Source: an uncultured Gammaproteobacteria bacterium (GTDB taxonomy: Bacteria; Patescibacteriota; Microgenomatia; UBA8517). Taken from it: a DNA stretch of 64,000 nucleotides. Made by a program: the position numbers and the translations under genes. Below the pieces are notes generated by a model, which ran no database searches, was not told where the DNA came from, and worked only from the letters and a program-made list of their open reading frames with translations. Positions 9,864 through 48,143 of this stretch are shown here, one piece after another. The stretch covers positions 2,706 through 66,705 of the forward strand of contig CAZCXV010000005.1 in the NCBI GenBank assembly GCA_964502815.1, read 5' to 3'. Position 1 is the stretch's first letter. Each line of letters opens with the position of its first letter.

Positions 9864-10970
9864 ATGGAAGAAGTTTACCAAGACCTGAATAAATTTATTG
9901 CAAACTTAAGGCTTTTTAGCTTTGAGCTGGCAAAATTCCTCCTGCATACTTTCCACCTGCAATTTCTGAAGTTTGAAAATCACAAGGGAAACTTTGTAAA
10001 TGCTCTTTATAAACAAAGAGGAAGATTATCAAGAAAATTAATACATTCTGGCATGGCCTCAATTACAGCCTTGGGAATTATGATTGCCCCGGTGATTGCC
10101 CAAGAGCTTCCCGGCCGCACTGTTGACCCTTGGAATATAGCTCCCAAAACTCAGGTTTTATCCGCCAGTATTGAGGATCAATCAACAGCCACTATAGTTT
10201 CTGATAAACCCAGATCCCAAGTTGAGGAATATCTTGTTCAAGAAGGGGATACTGTAGGAACTATCGCCGATAAGTTTGGTATTTCCCAGGACACTATCCG
10301 TTGGGAGAATAACCTGGTTAAAGATAAAATAAAGCCTGGGGAAAAACTAAAAATTCTGCCTGTAGCTGGGATTTCCCATAAGGTGAGAAAAGGGGATACT
10401 GTTTATTCAATTGCTAAAGAGTACGACACTTCAGAACAAGGAATAGTTGACTTTCCATATAATTCTTTCTCAAATGATGAAACTTTTGAATTGGCAGTGG
10501 GACAAATTATTGTTGTTCCAGATGGGGTAAAAAAGCCAGAAGTTACGATTCCTGGTTCTGGCGCGGTCAGACCAAGACAAACAACTCCAGACGCCGGAAC
10601 AGTTGTTGCTTCGGGCCAATTTGTCTGGCCAACCCAAGGAACTATTTCCCAAAGATTTGCTTGGTATCATCCTGGAGTCGATATTGCCAATAAAAGCTTA
10701 CCGCCAATACTTGCTGCTGACTCTGGAAAAGTAATTGCCTCTGGCTGGGATCCGTCTGGCTATGGAAATAAAGTAATGATTGATCATGGTAATGGCTATA
10801 TAACTCTCTATGGCCACATGTCTAAATTATATGTCACAATAGGACAAACTGTAACAAGAGGCAATCAAATAGGTCAAATGGGCTCAACTGGAAGATCAAC
10901 CGGGCCTCACCTACATTTTGAAATCTACAAAGGGGGAACAAGGCTAAGTCCATTCCTGTATTTGAAGTAA
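9864..10970 (+). CDS. LysM-domain M23 family metallopeptidase (cell-wall hydrolase)
   Basis: Two LysM motifs (GDTVGTIADKFGIS, GDTVYSIAKEYD); M23 motifs HPGVD...GHMSK...GPHLHFE. The true start is probably the internal ATG at 10053 (MASITALGIMIAPVIA, a TM helix). Confidence 0.8.
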   Translation: MEEVYQDLNKFIANLRLFSFELAKFLLHTFHLQFLKFENHKGNFVNALYKQRGRLSRKLIHSGMASITALGIMIAPVIAQELPGRTVDPWNIAPKTQVLSASIEDQSTATIVSDKPRSQVEEYLVQEGDTVGTIADKFGISQDTIRWENNLVKDKIKPGEKLKILPVAGISHKVRKGDTVYSIAKEYDTSEQGIVDFPYNSFSNDETFELAVGQIIVVPDGVKKPEVTIPGSGAVRPRQTTPDAGTVVASGQFVWPTQGTISQRFAWYHPGVDIANKSLPPILAADSGKVIASGWDPSGYGNKVMIDHGNGYITLYGHMSKLYVTIGQTVTRGNQIGQMGSTGRSTGPHLHFEIYKGGTRLSPFLYLK

Positions 10971-44994: not shown

Positions 44995-45871
44995 GGGTGG
45001 AGAAAGACGATTGGTCGACCAAGTAGAAACTCGTCAGGAGATTTTGAAAAACACGAGCAATTGGTATGTCCAACAAAGAGTAATAATGGCTCATGAGTTA
45101 GCCACACATTTTGCCTCAGACCAAGAAAGTGGTCTTGTATCAGACATTACTAGACAGTTACATCAAGAAGGTAGGACATATAAAGATGTGATTATTGACT
45201 ATTTTTCTCGAGAAAGTAAATCAATTGGTGAACTTATAAACAGCCCATTCATCAGTGCGTTTAGAAAAACTAAACTTTGTTCTGAAGCAGAAGAGGAATT
45301 TCTATCTTCAGATCCAAGTGAAGAAGATTTTTTGGATTGGCTTAAAATGCAAATTCATGTTTTGGCAGATGGATTGGCAACGTGTGTGAATATAGAAGGT
45401 GTTATTGAGAAAGTGCCCCAAGCCATTCAAAATAAGAAGAGATTGGATAAAGGAGCTCTTTGGAGAGAGCAAAATCCTGAAGAGGCGATAAGGATTCAGA
45501 AGTTGGCTACCCAAAAAGCAATTGAGGCTGCAAAACCATATGTTTTTACTGACGAGTTAAGAGGACTTGTGCAATTTCTTTTAGAAGACATGAAACCTGA
45601 AAAAGTTGTCACAGTTCTTAAAATGCTTGGTTATAGAACTGACTATGCTTCTTTAATGAGAGCAATCAGAAAATATCCAGATATGAAAAATTCATTTCAA
45701 GAGAAAAGGGATTTGGAACAACAAAAGAGAGAAGAGACAATATTAAGAGTTTACAAAGAGACGGGATCGATTGTTAAAACCTATCGACTGTTAAGTAGTC
45801 TTTACACTCACAAACAAGTTGGATATGTAATTTTAAAATCAAGGGAATCTGACCTAGAAGAAGATTTATAG
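44993..45871 (+). CDS. Hypothetical cytoplasmic protein
   Basis: ATG at 44993 preferred over the upstream 44762 start, which would overlap the divergent gene by 230 nt; acidic, helical, no known motif. Confidence 0.45.
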   Translation: MGGERRLVDQVETRQEILKNTSNWYVQQRVIMAHELATHFASDQESGLVSDITRQLHQEGRTYKDVIIDYFSRESKSIGELINSPFISAFRKTKLCSEAEEEFLSSDPSEEDFLDWLKMQIHVLADGLATCVNIEGVIEKVPQAIQNKKRLDKGALWREQNPEEAIRIQKLATQKAIEAAKPYVFTDELRGLVQFLLEDMKPEKVVTVLKMLGYRTDYASLMRAIRKYPDMKNSFQEKRDLEQQKREETILRVYKETGSIVKTYRLLSSLYTHKQVGYVILKSRESDLEEDL

Positions 45872-45875
45872 TTTG

Positions 45876-45947
45876 TGTTCCCGCCGAGAATCGAACTCAG
45901 ATTTAAGGTTTAGGAAACCTTTGTTCTATCCGTTGAACTACGGGAAC
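45876..45947 (-). tRNA. tRNA-Arg (anticodon CCT), no encoded CCA
   Basis: Manual fold: acceptor GTTCCCG/CGGGAAC, D arm GTTC-AACGGATA-GAAC, anticodon stem AAGGT/ACCTT with loop TTCCTAA, T arm CTGAG-TTCGATT-CTCGG, discriminator A. Confidence 0.85.
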
Positions 45948-46572
45948 AAAATTGCTCTGTTACTTGATCTTTTAAAGCTAAAATGTATTTTAACATGTAG
46001 CTCGTGGCTTTTTTAACTCTAACTCTACACATCCCATATTTTAGTTTTCCGACCTTTTTTCCATAAATAATCTCGGTATGTTGAAAATTGCTTAAGGGTA
46101 TTTTTGTAACTCCTGACCAATATTGTTTGCAAGTATTTTCATCCATGTCTTGAAAAATTCTTATATTGGCTCTAAGTTGGTCATTTTTGACATCAAAGAG
46201 ATCTCTCAGGCCTTGGACAAAAACATTAATCATTTTTGGATCACTATTATTCATAATAAAGTCACTTTTATTGCCTTCACCCCAATACAAAGCTGTCAAA
46301 AATATTAACTTTTCTTTGTTTGTAACTGAAGGGATGTCTCTTTTTGCATTTAATTTTGCTTTCTCAATTGCTAATTTCTCTCTTAATGTGCTGGTGGATT
46401 GTTTGTTTTTCCAAACATGCATATTTTCGGGGGAAATTTTCACAGTGGAGGCATACCGATAAACAGTTCCATGGCCAACATTGACAAGTTTCTTAATCTC
46501 AGTATAACTATTTCCTTTATTTCTTAATAATTTTATTTTTAGTATTTGATTCTCAGTTAAATGTTTGCTCAT
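45910..46572 (-). CDS. HTH-domain protein with LAGLIDADG-like motif (putative homing endonuclease / mobile-element protein)
   Basis: N-terminal HTH (GNSYTEIKKLVNVGHGTVYRY). NKEKLIFLTALYWGEGNKS aligns with the I-CreI block NKEFLLYLAGFVDGDGSI. The last 12 codons plus stop are read from the 5' half of tRNA-Arg, with the stop TAA in the anticodon loop. Confidence 0.5.
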   Translation of the reverse strand: MSKHLTENQILKIKLLRNKGNSYTEIKKLVNVGHGTVYRYASTVKISPENMHVWKNKQSTSTLREKLAIEKAKLNAKRDIPSVTNKEKLIFLTALYWGEGNKSDFIMNNSDPKMINVFVQGLRDLFDVKNDQLRANIRIFQDMDENTCKQYWSGVTKIPLSNFQHTEIIYGKKVGKLKYGMCRVRVKKATSYMLKYILALKDQVTEQFCSRSSTDRTKVS

Positions 46573-46609
46573 ACAATTGTAATTATACTATTGACAAATT
46601 CTTTGTAAA

Positions 46610-46647
46610 CTAGGACGGGTCTGCTCTGTCCGTTGAGCTATGGGAGC
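46610..46647 (-). pseudogene. Truncated tRNA 5' half (acceptor and D arm, ending in an anticodon loop carrying CCT)
   Basis: GCTCCCA-TA-GCTC-AACGGACA-GAGC-A-GACCC-GTCCTAG has no 3' half; it runs directly into the promoter region of 45910..46572. Confidence 0.4.
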
Positions 46648-46698
46648 TCGTGATAGGAAACCTCATGTTCTACCGGCTTAAGCCGGCCAAGCTTTGCT

Positions 46699-46719
46699 TA
46701 TCCGTTGAACTACGGGAAC
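46699..46719 (-). pseudogene. Fragment identical to the first 21 nt of tRNA-Arg(CCT), followed by a 27-nt palindromic insert and a degenerate D/anticodon segment
   Basis: GTTCCCGTAGTTCAACGGATA, then AGCAAAGCTTGGCCGGCTTAAGCCGGT, then AGAACATGAGGTTTCCTA (compare GAACAAAGGTTTCCTA in the intact gene). Confidence 0.45.
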
Positions 46720-46748
46720 TTTAGGTTATTTTAACATAAAACATGAAG

Positions 46749-48143
46749 CTATCTTGTGGGATTTTCAAACCAAATGACTCCTAATCCTTGTTTGTCATTG
46801 GTTTTTTCCTCAGTCGTGACTACGTCTAGGTCTCCATCTTTATCAACATCAATTAAAGGTATCAAGTCATACTTAATTCCAAGTTTTCCTGATATGCTTT
46901 CTGCCATCCAACTCCCCTGAAAAGTGGAGAGATTGTTTTTTAAGTAGAAGACATTTTCAGAACCTTCATATTTGTTATTTGTTGAGACAATAATTTCATT
47001 TTTACCATCCAAATCTATGTCAGCAACTGAAACAGCTTTAGATAATCCAAAATTGTTAGGAAAATCAATTTGATAAGTTGTCCAATCCAAACCTGTTCTA
47101 GAAAGCCTTTTAGAAATTAAAATCTGTCTTTGTTTAGCTGCTGTGACAATATCGTCTAGGCCATCCTTGTCAAGGTCTGCTATTGTGATGAACCCTGGAT
47201 GTACATTTTCTAGAATATAGTGCTGGATCCACTTGTTATCTAATTGTTCTAGTCCAGGGTTTTCTAACCAACGGACACTTCCTTGAATCGCTAAGTCATC
47301 TTCACTATCTTTATCATCTGAAAACGATTTTCCTCGGTCTGAGATCAGGATATCTTGATCTCCGTCCGAGTCCATATCTGTAGCAAATATTGACATTATA
47401 TAATTAACATCACTTAAAACATGCCAAACCCACTTATCTATCTCTCTTGGATTCTGTGGTGATTCAAACCAACCAAGTTTGGCATTTATACCTTTGCTTC
47501 CTGCCACAATGTCAATTCTTCCGTCTTTGTTTAGGTCAATCGGAAAAGTATACATCCATTTTGTTTTTCCTTTTGACTCAGTCAAAATTTCAGTTTTCCA
47601 GGCAATTGGGTCAAGAATTTTCTGTTTGTCTTTGGGTCCCCAAGAAAGATATATTTTTCTATCATCCATTTCTGTTGAACTAATTACATCATACGAGTTG
47701 TCATTGTCTAAATCCGCAAAGACTGCATCTTCAACATATGGAGTTTTTGCGACAGTTACACTTTGCCATTTGTTTTTTGAAGCATTTATATTTCCGGGGT
47801 GGAGAAAAACATCTGTTCGACCGCCTTTTTCACCACCACTGACTAAATCGGGAAAATTATCGCCATTTATATCCATACTTCTGACACCGTCTGATCCTTT
47901 GGCGTTTCCAATAACGTGCATTTGCCATGGTTTAGAAGCTGGATTATATGTTGCAGTACCTAAGCTTTGGGTAGGACTTGAGGCAAAAGGAAGTTTAAGA
48001 ACTTGTTTCTGGACTAGGTAAGCTCCTACAAAAGTAGCAACAATTAAAACAGTAATAAGTAAAAGGGTAATGATTTGTTTACTGTTATAGTTTCTGGCAG
48101 ACATATTACTTAAATGATAGTTCTTTCGAACGGCCATCGTCAA
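46749..48143 (-). CDS. Secreted FG-GAP/VCBS repeat protein (beta-propeller)
   Basis: N-terminal TM/signal; at least seven Dx[DN]xDGxxD Ca-binding repeats (DINGDNFPDLV, DLNKDGRIDIV, DMDSDGDQDIL, DLDKDGLDDIV, DIDLDGKNEII, DVDKDGDLDVV). Confidence 0.65.
   Translation of the reverse strand: MTMAVRKNYHLSNMSARNYNSKQIITLLLITVLIVATFVGAYLVQKQVLKLPFASSPTQSLGTATYNPASKPWQMHVIGNAKGSDGVRSMDINGDNFPDLVSGGEKGGRTDVFLHPGNINASKNKWQSVTVAKTPYVEDAVFADLDNDNSYDVISSTEMDDRKIYLSWGPKDKQKILDPIAWKTEILTESKGKTKWMYTFPIDLNKDGRIDIVAGSKGINAKLGWFESPQNPREIDKWVWHVLSDVNYIMSIFATDMDSDGDQDILISDRGKSFSDDKDSEDDLAIQGSVRWLENPGLEQLDNKWIQHYILENVHPGFITIADLDKDGLDDIVTAAKQRQILISKRLSRTGLDWTTYQIDFPNNFGLSKAVSVADIDLDGKNEIIVSTNNKYEGSENVFYLKNNLSTFQGSWMAESISGKLGIKYDLIPLIDVDKDGDLDVVTTEEKTNDKQGLGVIWFENPTR

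Follow-up and report, generated by a model that had tools for sequence, protein, structure and literature searches.

Among integration sites, tRNA genes are a classic choice, and one of the known crossover sublocations within them is the anticodon loop. In fungal and protist mitochondria, free-standing endonuclease ORFs bring a replacement copy of the gene end that they interrupt. The transcription factor WhiA lacks the catalytic acidic residues of LAGLIDADG proteins. In Cyanobacteriota, LAGLIDADG endonuclease genes reside in group I introns at position 36/37 of tRNA-Arg(CCU) (PMC13011429). Intron-less homing with co-conversion is the route by which free-standing endonuclease genes spread, and SegB of the T4 tRNA cluster is such a free-standing homing endonuclease of T-even phages (PMC2988022).

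The window analyzed here, a stretch of 64,000 nt from a Patescibacteria genome, contains a cassette of ~700 nt inserted at position 37/38 (after A37) in the anticodon loop of the tRNA-Arg(CCU) gene. The cassette is an insertion at this position, because in related loci without its ORF an intact tRNA occupies the exact position of the displaced 5′ half, hereafter the orphan.

The cassette and the cyanobacterial tRNA-Arg(CCU) introns have the target gene in common, nearly the same insertion point, and probably the same fold class of the encoded protein. Unlike these introns, the cassette has no intron ribozyme, and tRNA function is kept by duplicated or replacement tRNA sequence rather than by splicing; its protein has an extra N-terminal helix-turn-helix (HTH) and no detectable sequence similarity to PF03161. 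As with SegB, an endonuclease(-like) ORF with its own promoter adjoins tRNA genes outside any intron or intein, and spread would be expected through double-strand-break repair with co-conversion of the flanks. SegB, however, is a GIY-YIG enzyme of phages that lies between genes and cuts an intergenic site, whereas the cassette interrupts a tRNA gene on a CPR bacterial chromosome and brings the tRNA sequence that rebuilds it. Insertion into a tRNA gene, carriage of a partial tRNA copy, regeneration of an intact gene, and a footprint left behind are shared with tRNA-targeting integrative elements and genomic islands. Tyrosine-integrase islands carry the 3′ part of the tRNA and an integrase, span kilobases, and end in a far-end repeat, whereas the ~700-nt cassette involves the 5′ half and encodes no recombinase. 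The mitochondrial endonuclease ORFs likewise hit an essential gene, duplicate the displaced segment, and leave a pseudogene fragment, but their targets are protein-coding and the 3′ end is replaced, whereas the cassette replaces the 5′ half of an RNA gene, which its ORF overlaps.

Organization of the locus

On the minus strand, the locus consists of a native tRNA promoter, fragment A, fragment B, a strong promoter, a 220-aa ORF, and an intact tRNA-Arg(CCT), in this order (Table 1). The sequence-only reading of the window had described four of these elements, namely two tRNA 5′ halves, the ORF, and the intact tRNA, and reading the sequence again placed all of them on this strand at the same coordinates. 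The strong promoter fills the ~38 nt from the orphan to the ATG, and the gap between ORF and tRNA is 0 nt. The 3′ end of the ORF, including its stop codon at T36-A37-A38, is formed by the first 38 nt of the resident tRNA; this read-through into the tRNA accounts for the length of 220 aa as against a family norm of 207 aa. The earlier claim that the C-terminus of the protein is read from the tRNA was therefore borne out, but the arrangement is not peculiar to the window. When the window is counted in, the ORF stop of 79 loci ranges from −35 to +51 relative to the tRNA 5′ end, and it falls inside the tRNA in 54 of them, which makes the overlap the family norm.

Table 1. Features of the cassette locus, in positions of the window.
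Feature	Coordinates	Strand	Evidence or remark
Native tRNA promoter remnant	46727..46740	(-)	TTTATGTTAAAATA, extended -10 (TGnTAAAAT)
Fragment A part 1, tRNA-Arg positions 1-21	46699..46719	(-)	identical to resident tRNA; nhmmer E 2.8e-4
27-nt G+C-rich palindromic insert, D-loop of fragment A	46672..46698	(-)	AGCAAAGCTTGGCCGGCTTAAGCCGGT
Fragment A part 2, D-stem 3′ strand and anticodon stem/loop	46654..46671	(-)	alignment to resident tRNA
6-nt spacer TCACGA between orphan halves	46648..46653	(-)	sequence read
Fragment B, complete tRNA-Arg 5′ half, positions 1-37	46611..46647	(-)	nhmmer E 1.2e-7
Cassette promoter, TTTACA-16 nt-TATAAT	46582..46609	(-)	11/12 match to consensus
ORF, 220 aa	45910..46572	(-)	ORF listing
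N-terminal HTH, aa 5-42, resolvase/Hin/transposase type	46447..46560	(-)	
C-terminal LAGLIDADG-like domain, aa 85-208	45949..46320	(-)	
Motif LTALYWGEG, invariant Glu99	46273-46299	(-)	
Resident intact tRNA-Arg(CCT)	45875..45947	(-)	ARAGORN; Rfam tRNA model, 65.8 bits

An FG-GAP gene neighbors the locus, and the 292-aa downstream neighbor has a single homologue. An exact look-up of the FG-GAP neighbor for empty sites gave no record. Six contigs of the source species, which is present in groundwater samples, are identical over the locus, with no filled/empty polymorphism among them.

Orphan tRNA 5′ halves

Part 1 of fragment A (46719-46699) equals the first 21 nt of the intact tRNA (45947-45927), and this sequence turns up twice in the window, where chance would predict 0 occurrences. 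The identity had been noted in the sequence-only reading and was reproduced on re-check. Fragment A stands directly behind the native promoter, whose extended -10 ends 8 nt upstream of its position 1. The D-loop insert contains a perfect palindrome, CCGGCTTAAGCCGG, with no further copy elsewhere in the window. Part 2, AGAACATGAGGTTTCCTA (46671-46654), terminates exactly at CCT-A (position 37); aligned with AGAACA-AAGGTTTCCTA of the resident tRNA, it shows one extra T and one A-to-G change. Fragment A is best explained as an in-situ relic of the original host tRNA.

Fragment B, GCTCCCATAGCTCAACGGACAGAGCAGACCCGTCCTA, matches the tRNA-Arg 5′-half profile over model positions 1-37. Its anticodon arm (GACCC-GTCCTA) is unlike that of the resident tRNA, and fragment B is identical at 34 of 38 positions to the orphan of a distant locus (L052). 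The CCCGTCCT arm recurs in the orphans of L005, L007, L025, L026, L052, and L066. The best explanation for fragment B is an older orphan that belongs to the cassette and arrived with it. Since fragment B is unlike the host-type tRNA and is located inside fragment A, at least one acquisition was non-vertical. The TCACGA spacer may have come from the donor as a remnant of its upstream flank, judging from the native flank ...AATCAC/G before the orphan of L027.

The sequence-only reading had suggested successive homing or integration events. Insertion of a cassette with an endonuclease-like ORF stands, and the data support its view of the fragments as tRNA debris from insertion at the anticodon loop; two complete successive homing events explain the two fragments less well than one in-situ relic plus one orphan that traveled with the cassette. 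The displaced 5′ halves are best explained as dead orphans.

The same reading had also raised an intron-containing or split tRNA, in which the orphan would serve as a 5′ exon and either a group I intron or trans-splicing would link it with the 3′ half downstream. The orphan halves do end precisely within the anticodon loop, and the break at 36-38 coincides with a known intron site of tRNA-Arg(CCU) (PMC13011429). However, a permissive Rfam scan of 45000-47500 (E up to 10) and a gathering-threshold scan of 11 related loci returned only tRNAs and one 16S gene, with no Intron_gpI match in either. There is also no non-coding space for a ribozyme, with ~38 nt of promoter upstream of the ORF and 0 nt between ORF and tRNA. 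The locus already has a complete canonical tRNA, most orphans show visible decay, and pairing of fragment B with the 3′ half of the resident tRNA is precluded by mismatches at 2/7 acceptor and 3/5 anticodon-stem positions. We therefore consider this explanation extremely improbable. An archaeal-type split tRNA, which would have separate half genes whose complementary leaders form a bulge-helix-bulge motif and would lack an intact copy, was likewise rejected, given the intact tRNA-Arg(CCT), the order of orphan followed by promoter and ORF, and the decay of orphans in most loci.

Comparison with loci lacking the ORF

The sequence-only reading had proposed a comparison with relatives that lack the ORF, and this comparison revealed an intact tRNA at the position of the orphan. 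Among 78 metagenome loci with an intact tRNA-Arg(CCT) and the same CPR tRNA synteny, none had the ORF directly upstream. In collinear pairs (L105 versus L014, L024, and L034; L134 versus L001 and L003), the orphan of the filled locus sits exactly where the intact tRNA of the empty locus lies, and both follow the same native promoter. The promoter motif TGnTAAAATAcaa precedes the orphan in the filled loci L014, L018, L034, and L027, and the intact tRNA in the empty locus L105. Presence and absence of the ORF at one defined target site were thus found between related lineages with collinear flanks of 65-78% identity, rather than within a species.

The anticodon arms of the orphans (CCCGTCCT) resemble those of ORF-free alleles, although arm frequencies are biased because the ORF-free sample was picked by arm sequence. 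This arm occurs in only 1 of 81 resident tRNAs, which would be predicted if a resident tRNA has to be unlike the target. Fragment A has a resident-type arm, so a non-CCC arm was broken too, which weakens a simple picture of sensitive and immune alleles. The CCC-type tRNA-Arg(CCU) gene carries ...CCCGTCCTAAGGG....

Promoter and distribution of the cassette

The cassette promoter begins 1 nt past the break of the orphan. Since its -10 ends 9 nt before the ATG, the predicted ORF mRNA is leaderless or near-leaderless. An equivalent promoter (at least 9/12) was found in 53 of 76 loci, compared with ~5 in shuffles.

The ORF is encoded in at least 555 species-level genomes, nearly all of them Patescibacteria, and its 261 homologues at 90% clustering are all from CPR. 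This cassette module, spread across hundreds of CPR species, is previously undescribed. In 78 of the 80 fetched loci, a tRNA-Arg(CCT) starts where the ORF ends or shortly beyond, and most loci retain a decaying orphan 5′ half that ends at the anticodon loop and abuts the ORF promoter. Profile matches over positions 1-37 upstream of the ORF were obtained in the window and in L026, L032, L041, L052, and L066, with decayed copies in many other loci. Two short remnants, GTCCT[AT]G and GGAYARARC, were detected in 18 and 14 of 76 loci (0.2 and 0.1 expected from shuffles, respectively). A profile search of 81 loci detected 5′ halves only and no orphan 3′ halves. A second clade of the family is linked to tRNA-Ala and retains GEG; no clear orphan half was seen there, and the model of insertion in the anticodon loop is therefore not extended to this clade.

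The cassette protein

The N-terminal HTH proposed in the sequence-only reading was recovered with Pfam HTH_7 (E 7e-5, just under the gathering cut-off). Its resolvase/Hin type raises a rival in which an integrase-like system recombines at the anticodon loop as attachment site and the HTH protein serves either as recombinase or as a recombination directionality factor; the standing of tRNA genes as classic integration sites, with the anticodon loop as a crossover sublocation, would suit it. Yet Pfam detected no serine- or tyrosine-recombinase catalytic domain in the ORF, the cassette comprises just ~700 nt with one ORF, and it lacks a far-end repeat. Moreover, it is the 5′ half that occurs in duplicate, while the part restored by integrases is normally the 3′ one. 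On these grounds, we judge site-specific recombination to be very unlikely. An integrase element as such was rejected for want of a tyrosine or serine recombinase and of a duplicated tRNA 3′ segment bounding the element in 81 loci.

The C-terminal domain was modeled with a pLDDT of 91.9. Its motif, L-x-A-L-Y-W-G-E-G, sits at the end of helix 1, and 111 family sequences show no variation at Y, W, E, and G; a LAGLIDADG-type motif with a conserved acidic residue is thus present. The order of elements in the model is alpha-beta-alpha-beta-alpha-beta-beta-alpha, with a helix separating the first two strands, as against the canonical alpha-beta-beta-alpha-beta-beta-alpha. A Foldseek search against the PDB gave no significant match. 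In the ORF and 24 family members, Pfam LAGLIDADG_1, _2, _3, and WhiA had no match at E up to 1, PDB phmmer gave nothing above threshold, and a PDB profile search matched only HTH proteins. Among 10 distant or long members, faint sub-threshold LAGLIDADG_3 matches (E 0.027 and 0.082) appeared only in two long distant relatives. The sequence-only reading had aligned a block of the ORF with the LAGLIDADG motif of I-CreI-type endonucleases; in addition to these Pfam and PDB profile results, hhalign against I-CreI gave a probability of 1.6%, and such similarity is undetectable at the sequence level. The putative LAGLIDADG block LTALYWGEG may have support at the level of the fold, and has none from any sequence model.

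WhiA is a LAGLIDADG-derived transcription factor with no linkage to tRNA genes, in which two degenerate LAGLIDADG domains are followed by a C-terminal HTH. The tRNA-linked cassette protein, with a single domain, an N-terminal HTH, and an invariant motif Glu, was accordingly not assigned to the WhiA-type transcription factors.

The ORF family is under strong purifying selection (dN/dS 0.03-0.19, median 0.12), the ORF is intact in all 80 fetched loci, and its similarity roughly follows taxonomy. These features would also suit an ancient insertion whose protein no longer cuts and has become a WhiA-like DNA-binding factor, with an HTH on a LAGLIDADG scaffold, inherited vertically and controlling its own promoter and hence the supply of tRNA-Arg(CCU). 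The anticodon part of the orphan beside the -35 is preferentially conserved, as an operator might be, and I-TevI is a precedent for dual use as nuclease and regulator (PMC2988022). Several observations point the other way: ORF presence and absence differ among related lineages, well-preserved orphans occur in scattered lineages, the window holds a second, foreign orphan, and a regulator would have no need of fusion to the tRNA 5′ end. In addition, neither clade shows any variation in GEG or in the acidic residue of the motif, whereas WhiA has no such catalytic residues. Domestication as a regulator is therefore an explanation that we find rather unlikely, with a better claim than recombination or splicing.

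Proposed mechanism and significance

The explanation we favor, and hold to be moderately probable, is an intron-less selfish cassette of the homing-endonuclease type in tRNA-Arg(CCU) that repairs its target with a carried replacement tRNA sequence. The cassette would consist of its own sigma-70-type promoter, a leaderless ORF encoding an HTH and a single LAGLIDADG-like domain, and a tRNA sequence fused to the ORF end, which would rebuild a complete tRNA-Arg(CCU). A homing-type endonuclease that acts as a homodimer is the most likely identity of the protein, which is predicted to cut ORF-free tRNA-Arg(CCU) genes within the naturally palindromic anticodon arm. LAGLIDADG homing endonucleases cleave both strands of the element-free allele at a specific site and leave 3′ overhangs of 4 nt; the end of the orphan halves at A37 would be compatible with a cut centered on the anticodon. 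Double-strand-break repair would then copy the cassette into the cut gene by intron-less homing, and the carried tRNA sequence, in place of an intron or intein, would keep the host gene functional. The original 5′ half would stay behind the native promoter as a dead orphan. Since the functional tRNA now lies downstream of the ORF, RNase P would have to release it from the transcript of the cassette. The intactness of all ORFs and the taxonomy-tracking similarity fit long vertical inheritance or domestication equally well as homing.

A broader version of this model, which we put forward tentatively and with less confidence than the homing cassette itself, posits a large undescribed Patescibacteria superfamily of intron-less homing cassettes on tRNA genes, with one tRNA per clade (Arg-CCU; Ala-GGC), a split anticodon loop, and replacement tRNA sequence fused to the ORF. 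Because the tRNA would be under the cassette's own promoter, the host would come to rely on the element for its supply of that tRNA. The half-site that remains beside the promoter may act as an operator for autoregulation. Resident tRNAs would be pushed to vary their anticodon stems and so avoid cleavage, which is how they may escape cutting.

If the protein is an active endonuclease, the cassette would add to introns and inteins a third means by which a homing endonuclease gene can inhabit an essential gene harmlessly, namely by bringing along a replacement piece of the gene that it cuts, here an RNA gene. The model, if true, would account for widespread CPR "hypothetical proteins" beside tRNA genes, for tRNA pseudo-fragments, and for the unusual diversity of tRNA-Arg(CCU) anticodon stems. 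It would also supply compact nucleases that have a single domain plus an accessory HTH and are directed by nature at tRNA genes. For genome annotation, the cassette marks orphan tRNA halves and tRNA-overlapping ORFs as real biology and not errors.

Layout of the tRNA-Arg(CCT) locus

The sequence-only reading had described two orphan tRNA 5′ halves (fragments A and B), an insert within fragment A, an ORF and an overlapping tRNA, and every detail of this description was borne out. The intact tRNA-Arg(CCT) at the ORF end, hereafter the resident tRNA, was the sole tRNA called at the locus by ARAGORN and Rfam. The 21-nt duplicate between fragment A and the resident tRNA was exact, with 0 chance matches expected in the window, thereby reproducing the fragment-to-tRNA identity claimed earlier. 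The palindrome of the fragment A insert is present as a single copy in the window. A profile of tRNA-Arg 5′ halves matched both fragment B (E 1.2e-7) and part 1 of fragment A (E 2.8e-4).

Features of the locus in minus-strand order (window numbering) and of second-clade ORFs (numbering of each fetched locus)
Feature	Coordinates	Strand	Basis or remark
FG-GAP-repeat gene, stop codon (first element)		minus	sequence reading
Promoter-like motif TTTATGTTAAAATA	46740-46727	minus	sequence reading
Fragment A, part 1, identical to tRNA positions 1-21	46719-46699	minus	sequence reading
Fragment A, 27-nt insert with CCGGCTTAAGCCGG	46698-46672	minus	sequence reading
Fragment A, part 2, AGAACATGAGGTTTCCTA	46671-46654	minus	sequence reading
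Spacer TCACGA (6 nt) between fragments A and B		minus	sequence reading
Fragment B, full 37-nt tRNA 5′ half, CCTA at end	46647-46611	minus	sequence reading
Cassette promoter TTTACA-16 nt-TATAAT, one G after fragment B	46609-46582	minus	11/12 consensus positions
ORF, 220 aa, ATG at 46572	46572-45910	minus	sequence reading
Intact tRNA-Arg(CCT)	45947-45875	minus	ARAGORN and Rfam
Second-clade ORF, L110	431-1102	plus	record orientation
Second-clade ORF, L207, L209, L210, L212, L214	1501 to ~2180		

The ORF-tRNA module in other genomes

Relatives of the ORF comprised 261 proteins clustered at 90% identity, with a typical length of 207 aa. Functional annotation was absent from all 261, and the few with organism names were Patescibacteria (CPR). 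A scan of one genome per species identified at least 555 ORF loci. Among 80 fetched loci, an intact tRNA-Arg(CCT) began at or just after the ORF end in 78, the exceptions being a contig truncated at its end and locus L040, where decay has affected the downstream tRNA and a second, intact copy is found upstream. Taking tRNA position 1 as reference, ORF stops fell between −35 and +51, with a preference for the conserved tRNA triplets U8-A9-G10 (TAG) and T36-A37-A38 (TAA). Since the stop fell inside the tRNA in 54 of 79 loci, reading into the tRNA is the rule, the window included, which explains C-terminal tails such as SPRSSTDRTEVS in homologues.

In L040 (2783-3690), the intact tRNA-Arg(CCT) is followed by a decayed orphan, the ORF and, fused to the ORF end, a tRNA that is also decayed; an additional short 5′ fragment lies upstream. 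Such an arrangement suggests that tRNA copies turn over around the cassette, the ~700-nt unit of promoter, ORF and tRNA sequence. The tRNA at the ORF end in L056 was called with anticodon CTA. One module (L059, PEXD01000038.1) was on a contig labelled Woesearchaeota archaeon and several others were on contigs labelled ‘uncultured Gammaproteobacteria’ or similar, labels that are probably binning or labelling artefacts. Insertions in 16S rRNA genes are common in CPR; in L041 (308-2050, minus strand), the 16S rRNA match covers 1743 nt against a 1533-position model, indicating an insertion of ~200 nt in the rRNA gene.

Empty sites and orphan 5′ halves

Metagenome contigs were scanned for an intact tRNA-Arg with the orphan-type anticodon arm (pattern GGAYAGARCRNNCCCGTCCTAAGGG), which gave at least 120 matches. 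An intact tRNA-Arg(CCT) with this arm was present in 78 of 80 fetched loci, none of which had the ORF directly upstream of it, and these 78 shared the tRNA neighbours tRNA-Pro(CGG), Ala(GGC), Ser(CGA), Phe and Gly(CCC) with ORF-bearing loci. In collinear pairs of empty (ORF-free) and filled loci (L105 vs L014, L024 and L034; L134 vs L001 and L003; flank identity 65-78%), the decayed orphan of the filled locus occupied the exact position of the intact tRNA in the empty locus, and the native promoter TGnTAAAATAcaac preceded both, ~8 nt before tRNA position +1. Because orphan and intact tRNA align in these pairs, a filled locus corresponds to an empty one plus ~700 nt after tRNA position 37, with an intact tRNA re-formed at the right end of the insertion. 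The cassette inserted in the anticodon loop and left the orphan behind the native promoter. This comparison with ORF-free relatives, envisaged in the sequence-only reading, supports the insertion at the core of its homing proposal.

Well-preserved halves (positions 1-37) were found just 5′ of the ORF in L026, L032, L041, L052, L066 and the window, and partial or decayed halves in L027, L033, L035, L038, L039, L076 and many more. Between −80 and −30 relative to the start codon, the remnants GTCCT[AT]G and GGAYARARC occurred in 18 and 14 of 76 loci, against 0.2 and 0.1 expected from shuffles. Orphan decay was graded, the acceptor and D part being lost first and the anticodon part beside the promoter lasting longest. 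The break was always within the anticodon loop (...CCT(A/T)G) and was immediately followed by a −35-like hexamer. Promoters scoring at least 9/12 were found in 53 of 76 loci (~5 in shuffles), and the −10 element ends only 5-9 nt upstream of the start codon, implying a leaderless mRNA. The orphan 5′ halves are thus part of the module.

Among the loci searched, no orphan 3′ halves were found. Integration of the integrase type is unlikely, since the wrong tRNA half is duplicated and no recombinase is present. The intron-containing or split tRNA considered in the sequence-only reading was not supported either: no ribozyme was detected and none would fit in the space available, the locus contains an intact tRNA, and the orphans are decaying. 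A survey of group I introns in Patescibacteria tRNAs comes closest in the literature: it reports introns at position 36/37 of cyanobacterial tRNA-Arg(CCU) that carry LAGLIDADG endonuclease genes, and does not report the arrangement of the present module (PMC13011429). Full-text literature searches, with subscription journals outside their coverage, returned no description of the ORF-tRNA module, and an earlier account is possible.

The encoded protein

N-terminal residues 5-42 form the HTH noted in the sequence-only reading, which is of resolvase/Hin/transposase type, and no Pfam family was found for C-terminal residues 85-208. When the C-terminal domain was modelled alone with 111 homologues (pLDDT 91.9), ~13 of the top 17 structural matches were LAGLIDADG-fold proteins; matches included the Tli VMA intein endonuclease domain (score 7.3), I-Tsp061I and I-DmoI (7.0 each), PI-PfuI and I-CvuI (6.7 each), I-CeuI (6.6), I-Vdi141I (6.4), I-MsoI (6.2) and I-CreI (5.6). 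The motif LxALYWGEG, with invariant Y, W, E and G, lies at the end of the first helix. Against this, in the model an additional helix separates the first two strands, Foldseek returned nothing significant, and sequence and profile searches of the family detected no LAGLIDADG apart from faint LAGLIDADG_3 matches in two long relatives. The earlier LAGLIDADG assignment finds support in structural matches and the motif and not in sequence or profile searches, and on this balance the modelled domain is best termed divergent LAGLIDADG-like, a label short of established enzyme-family membership. The main alternative, that the protein is a domesticated WhiA-like regulator, appears rather improbable.

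The cassette has its own promoter, its ORF is fused to the tRNA, and the gene is under purifying selection (dN/dS 0.03-0.19, median 0.12, in 10 close pairs). At 50% identity clustering, the superfamily comprised 4690 cluster representatives at E<=1e-3 and 2503 at E<=1e-10. Members of 400-580 aa (P0347, P0354, P0363, P0366, P0377, P0383 and P0387) contain two or three family stretches and may be tandem-fused, single-chain versions; in two of them the faint LAGLIDADG_3 matches fall in a second domain.

A sister clade and nested tRNAs

Through a distant homologue in L110 we reached a second clade, comprising at least 939 proteins (90% identity clusters; typical length ~227 aa). In all 6 loci examined, the ORF of this clade directly adjoined a downstream tRNA-Ala(GGC), and a conserved element lies upstream of it (TTTCAC/TTTGCAC-ATTGATA...TGGTACAAT). 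Of the 80 Arg-clade loci, 4 (L022, L042, L056 and L078) also contain a second, weaker match to the family, followed by tRNA-Ala(GGC) in all except L042, and in L078 (1826-3684) the tRNA-Arg and tRNA-Ala modules lie in tandem on one strand. Since both clades adjoin tRNA genes, this linkage is a property of the superfamily. The Ala clade showed no clear orphan half.

A third, more distant member (E 1.7e-8) lies in L137 (10757-11275, plus strand) downstream of tRNA-Ala(CGC) and is cut by the contig end. In L127 (~1800-2110, tRNA on the plus strand) and L110 (~150-330, record orientation), a decayed outer tRNA-Arg is interrupted by an insert holding a complete inner tRNA-Arg(CCT) between G+C-rich inverted repeats (CCCCCACACTAT/ATAGTGTGGGGG in L127; CCTGCCCGCCATGGCC.../...GGGCGATGGCAGGCGGG in L110), the break in the L110 outer tRNA following D-loop position 21. 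The tRNA-Ala(CGC) of L137 (~10530-10640) has comparable flanks.

Origin of the two fragments

The native-promoter motif, which has the 15-mer TTTTATGTTAAAATA in common with L018, lies ahead of fragment A and, in L105, ahead of the intact tRNA. Fragment A is accordingly what remains in situ of the host tRNA after a break behind CCTA. The acceptor of fragment B differs (GCTCCCA) and its arm is CCC-type (GACCC-GTCCTA); it is unable to work with the resident 3′ half because of mismatches at 2/7 acceptor and 3/5 anticodon-stem positions. Fragment B and the orphan of L052, a distant locus, agree at 34 of 38 positions, whereas the two ORFs are only ~40% identical.

Of the successive homing or integration events proposed earlier, insertion stands, and we infer as the simplest reading a single cassette whose incoming DNA already held orphan B and a few bases of donor flank and became linked to fragment A, the broken 5′ half of the host tRNA. 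The resident 5′ half is host-type, which implies a closely related donor or else its later conversion from fragment A. Alternatively, two complete invasions may have occurred in succession, with later loss of the first ORF by deletion. The G+C-rich insert of fragment A follows D-loop position 21, the same position as the break in the L110 outer tRNA, and could be the footprint of a small inverted-repeat cassette as in L127 and L110.

Proposed mechanism

Orphan arms were mostly CCCGTCCT, a type present in only 1 of 81 resident tRNAs, and ORF-free alleles with that arm were common in a sample chosen by arm sequence. With that choice of sample, the pattern fits target-site divergence of the resident tRNAs; breakage was not confined to CCC-type arms, as fragment A shows. 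Acting as a homodimer, the protein would cut tRNA-Arg(CCU) genes that lack the ORF, within the anticodon arm, a natural inverted repeat that would suit a symmetric enzyme. Repair from a cassette-bearing copy would then install the cassette, with co-conversion strongest near the break. The cassette promoter would drive transcription of the working tRNA and RNase P would release it, a processing step that in many loci would also remove the ORF stop codon. The half-site retained beside the −35 element could serve as an operator, as in the autorepression of I-TevI, a precedent for an endonuclease acting on its own operator (PMC2988022). The locus is a free-standing homing-endonuclease-like gene that offsets its own insertion by carrying tRNA sequence.
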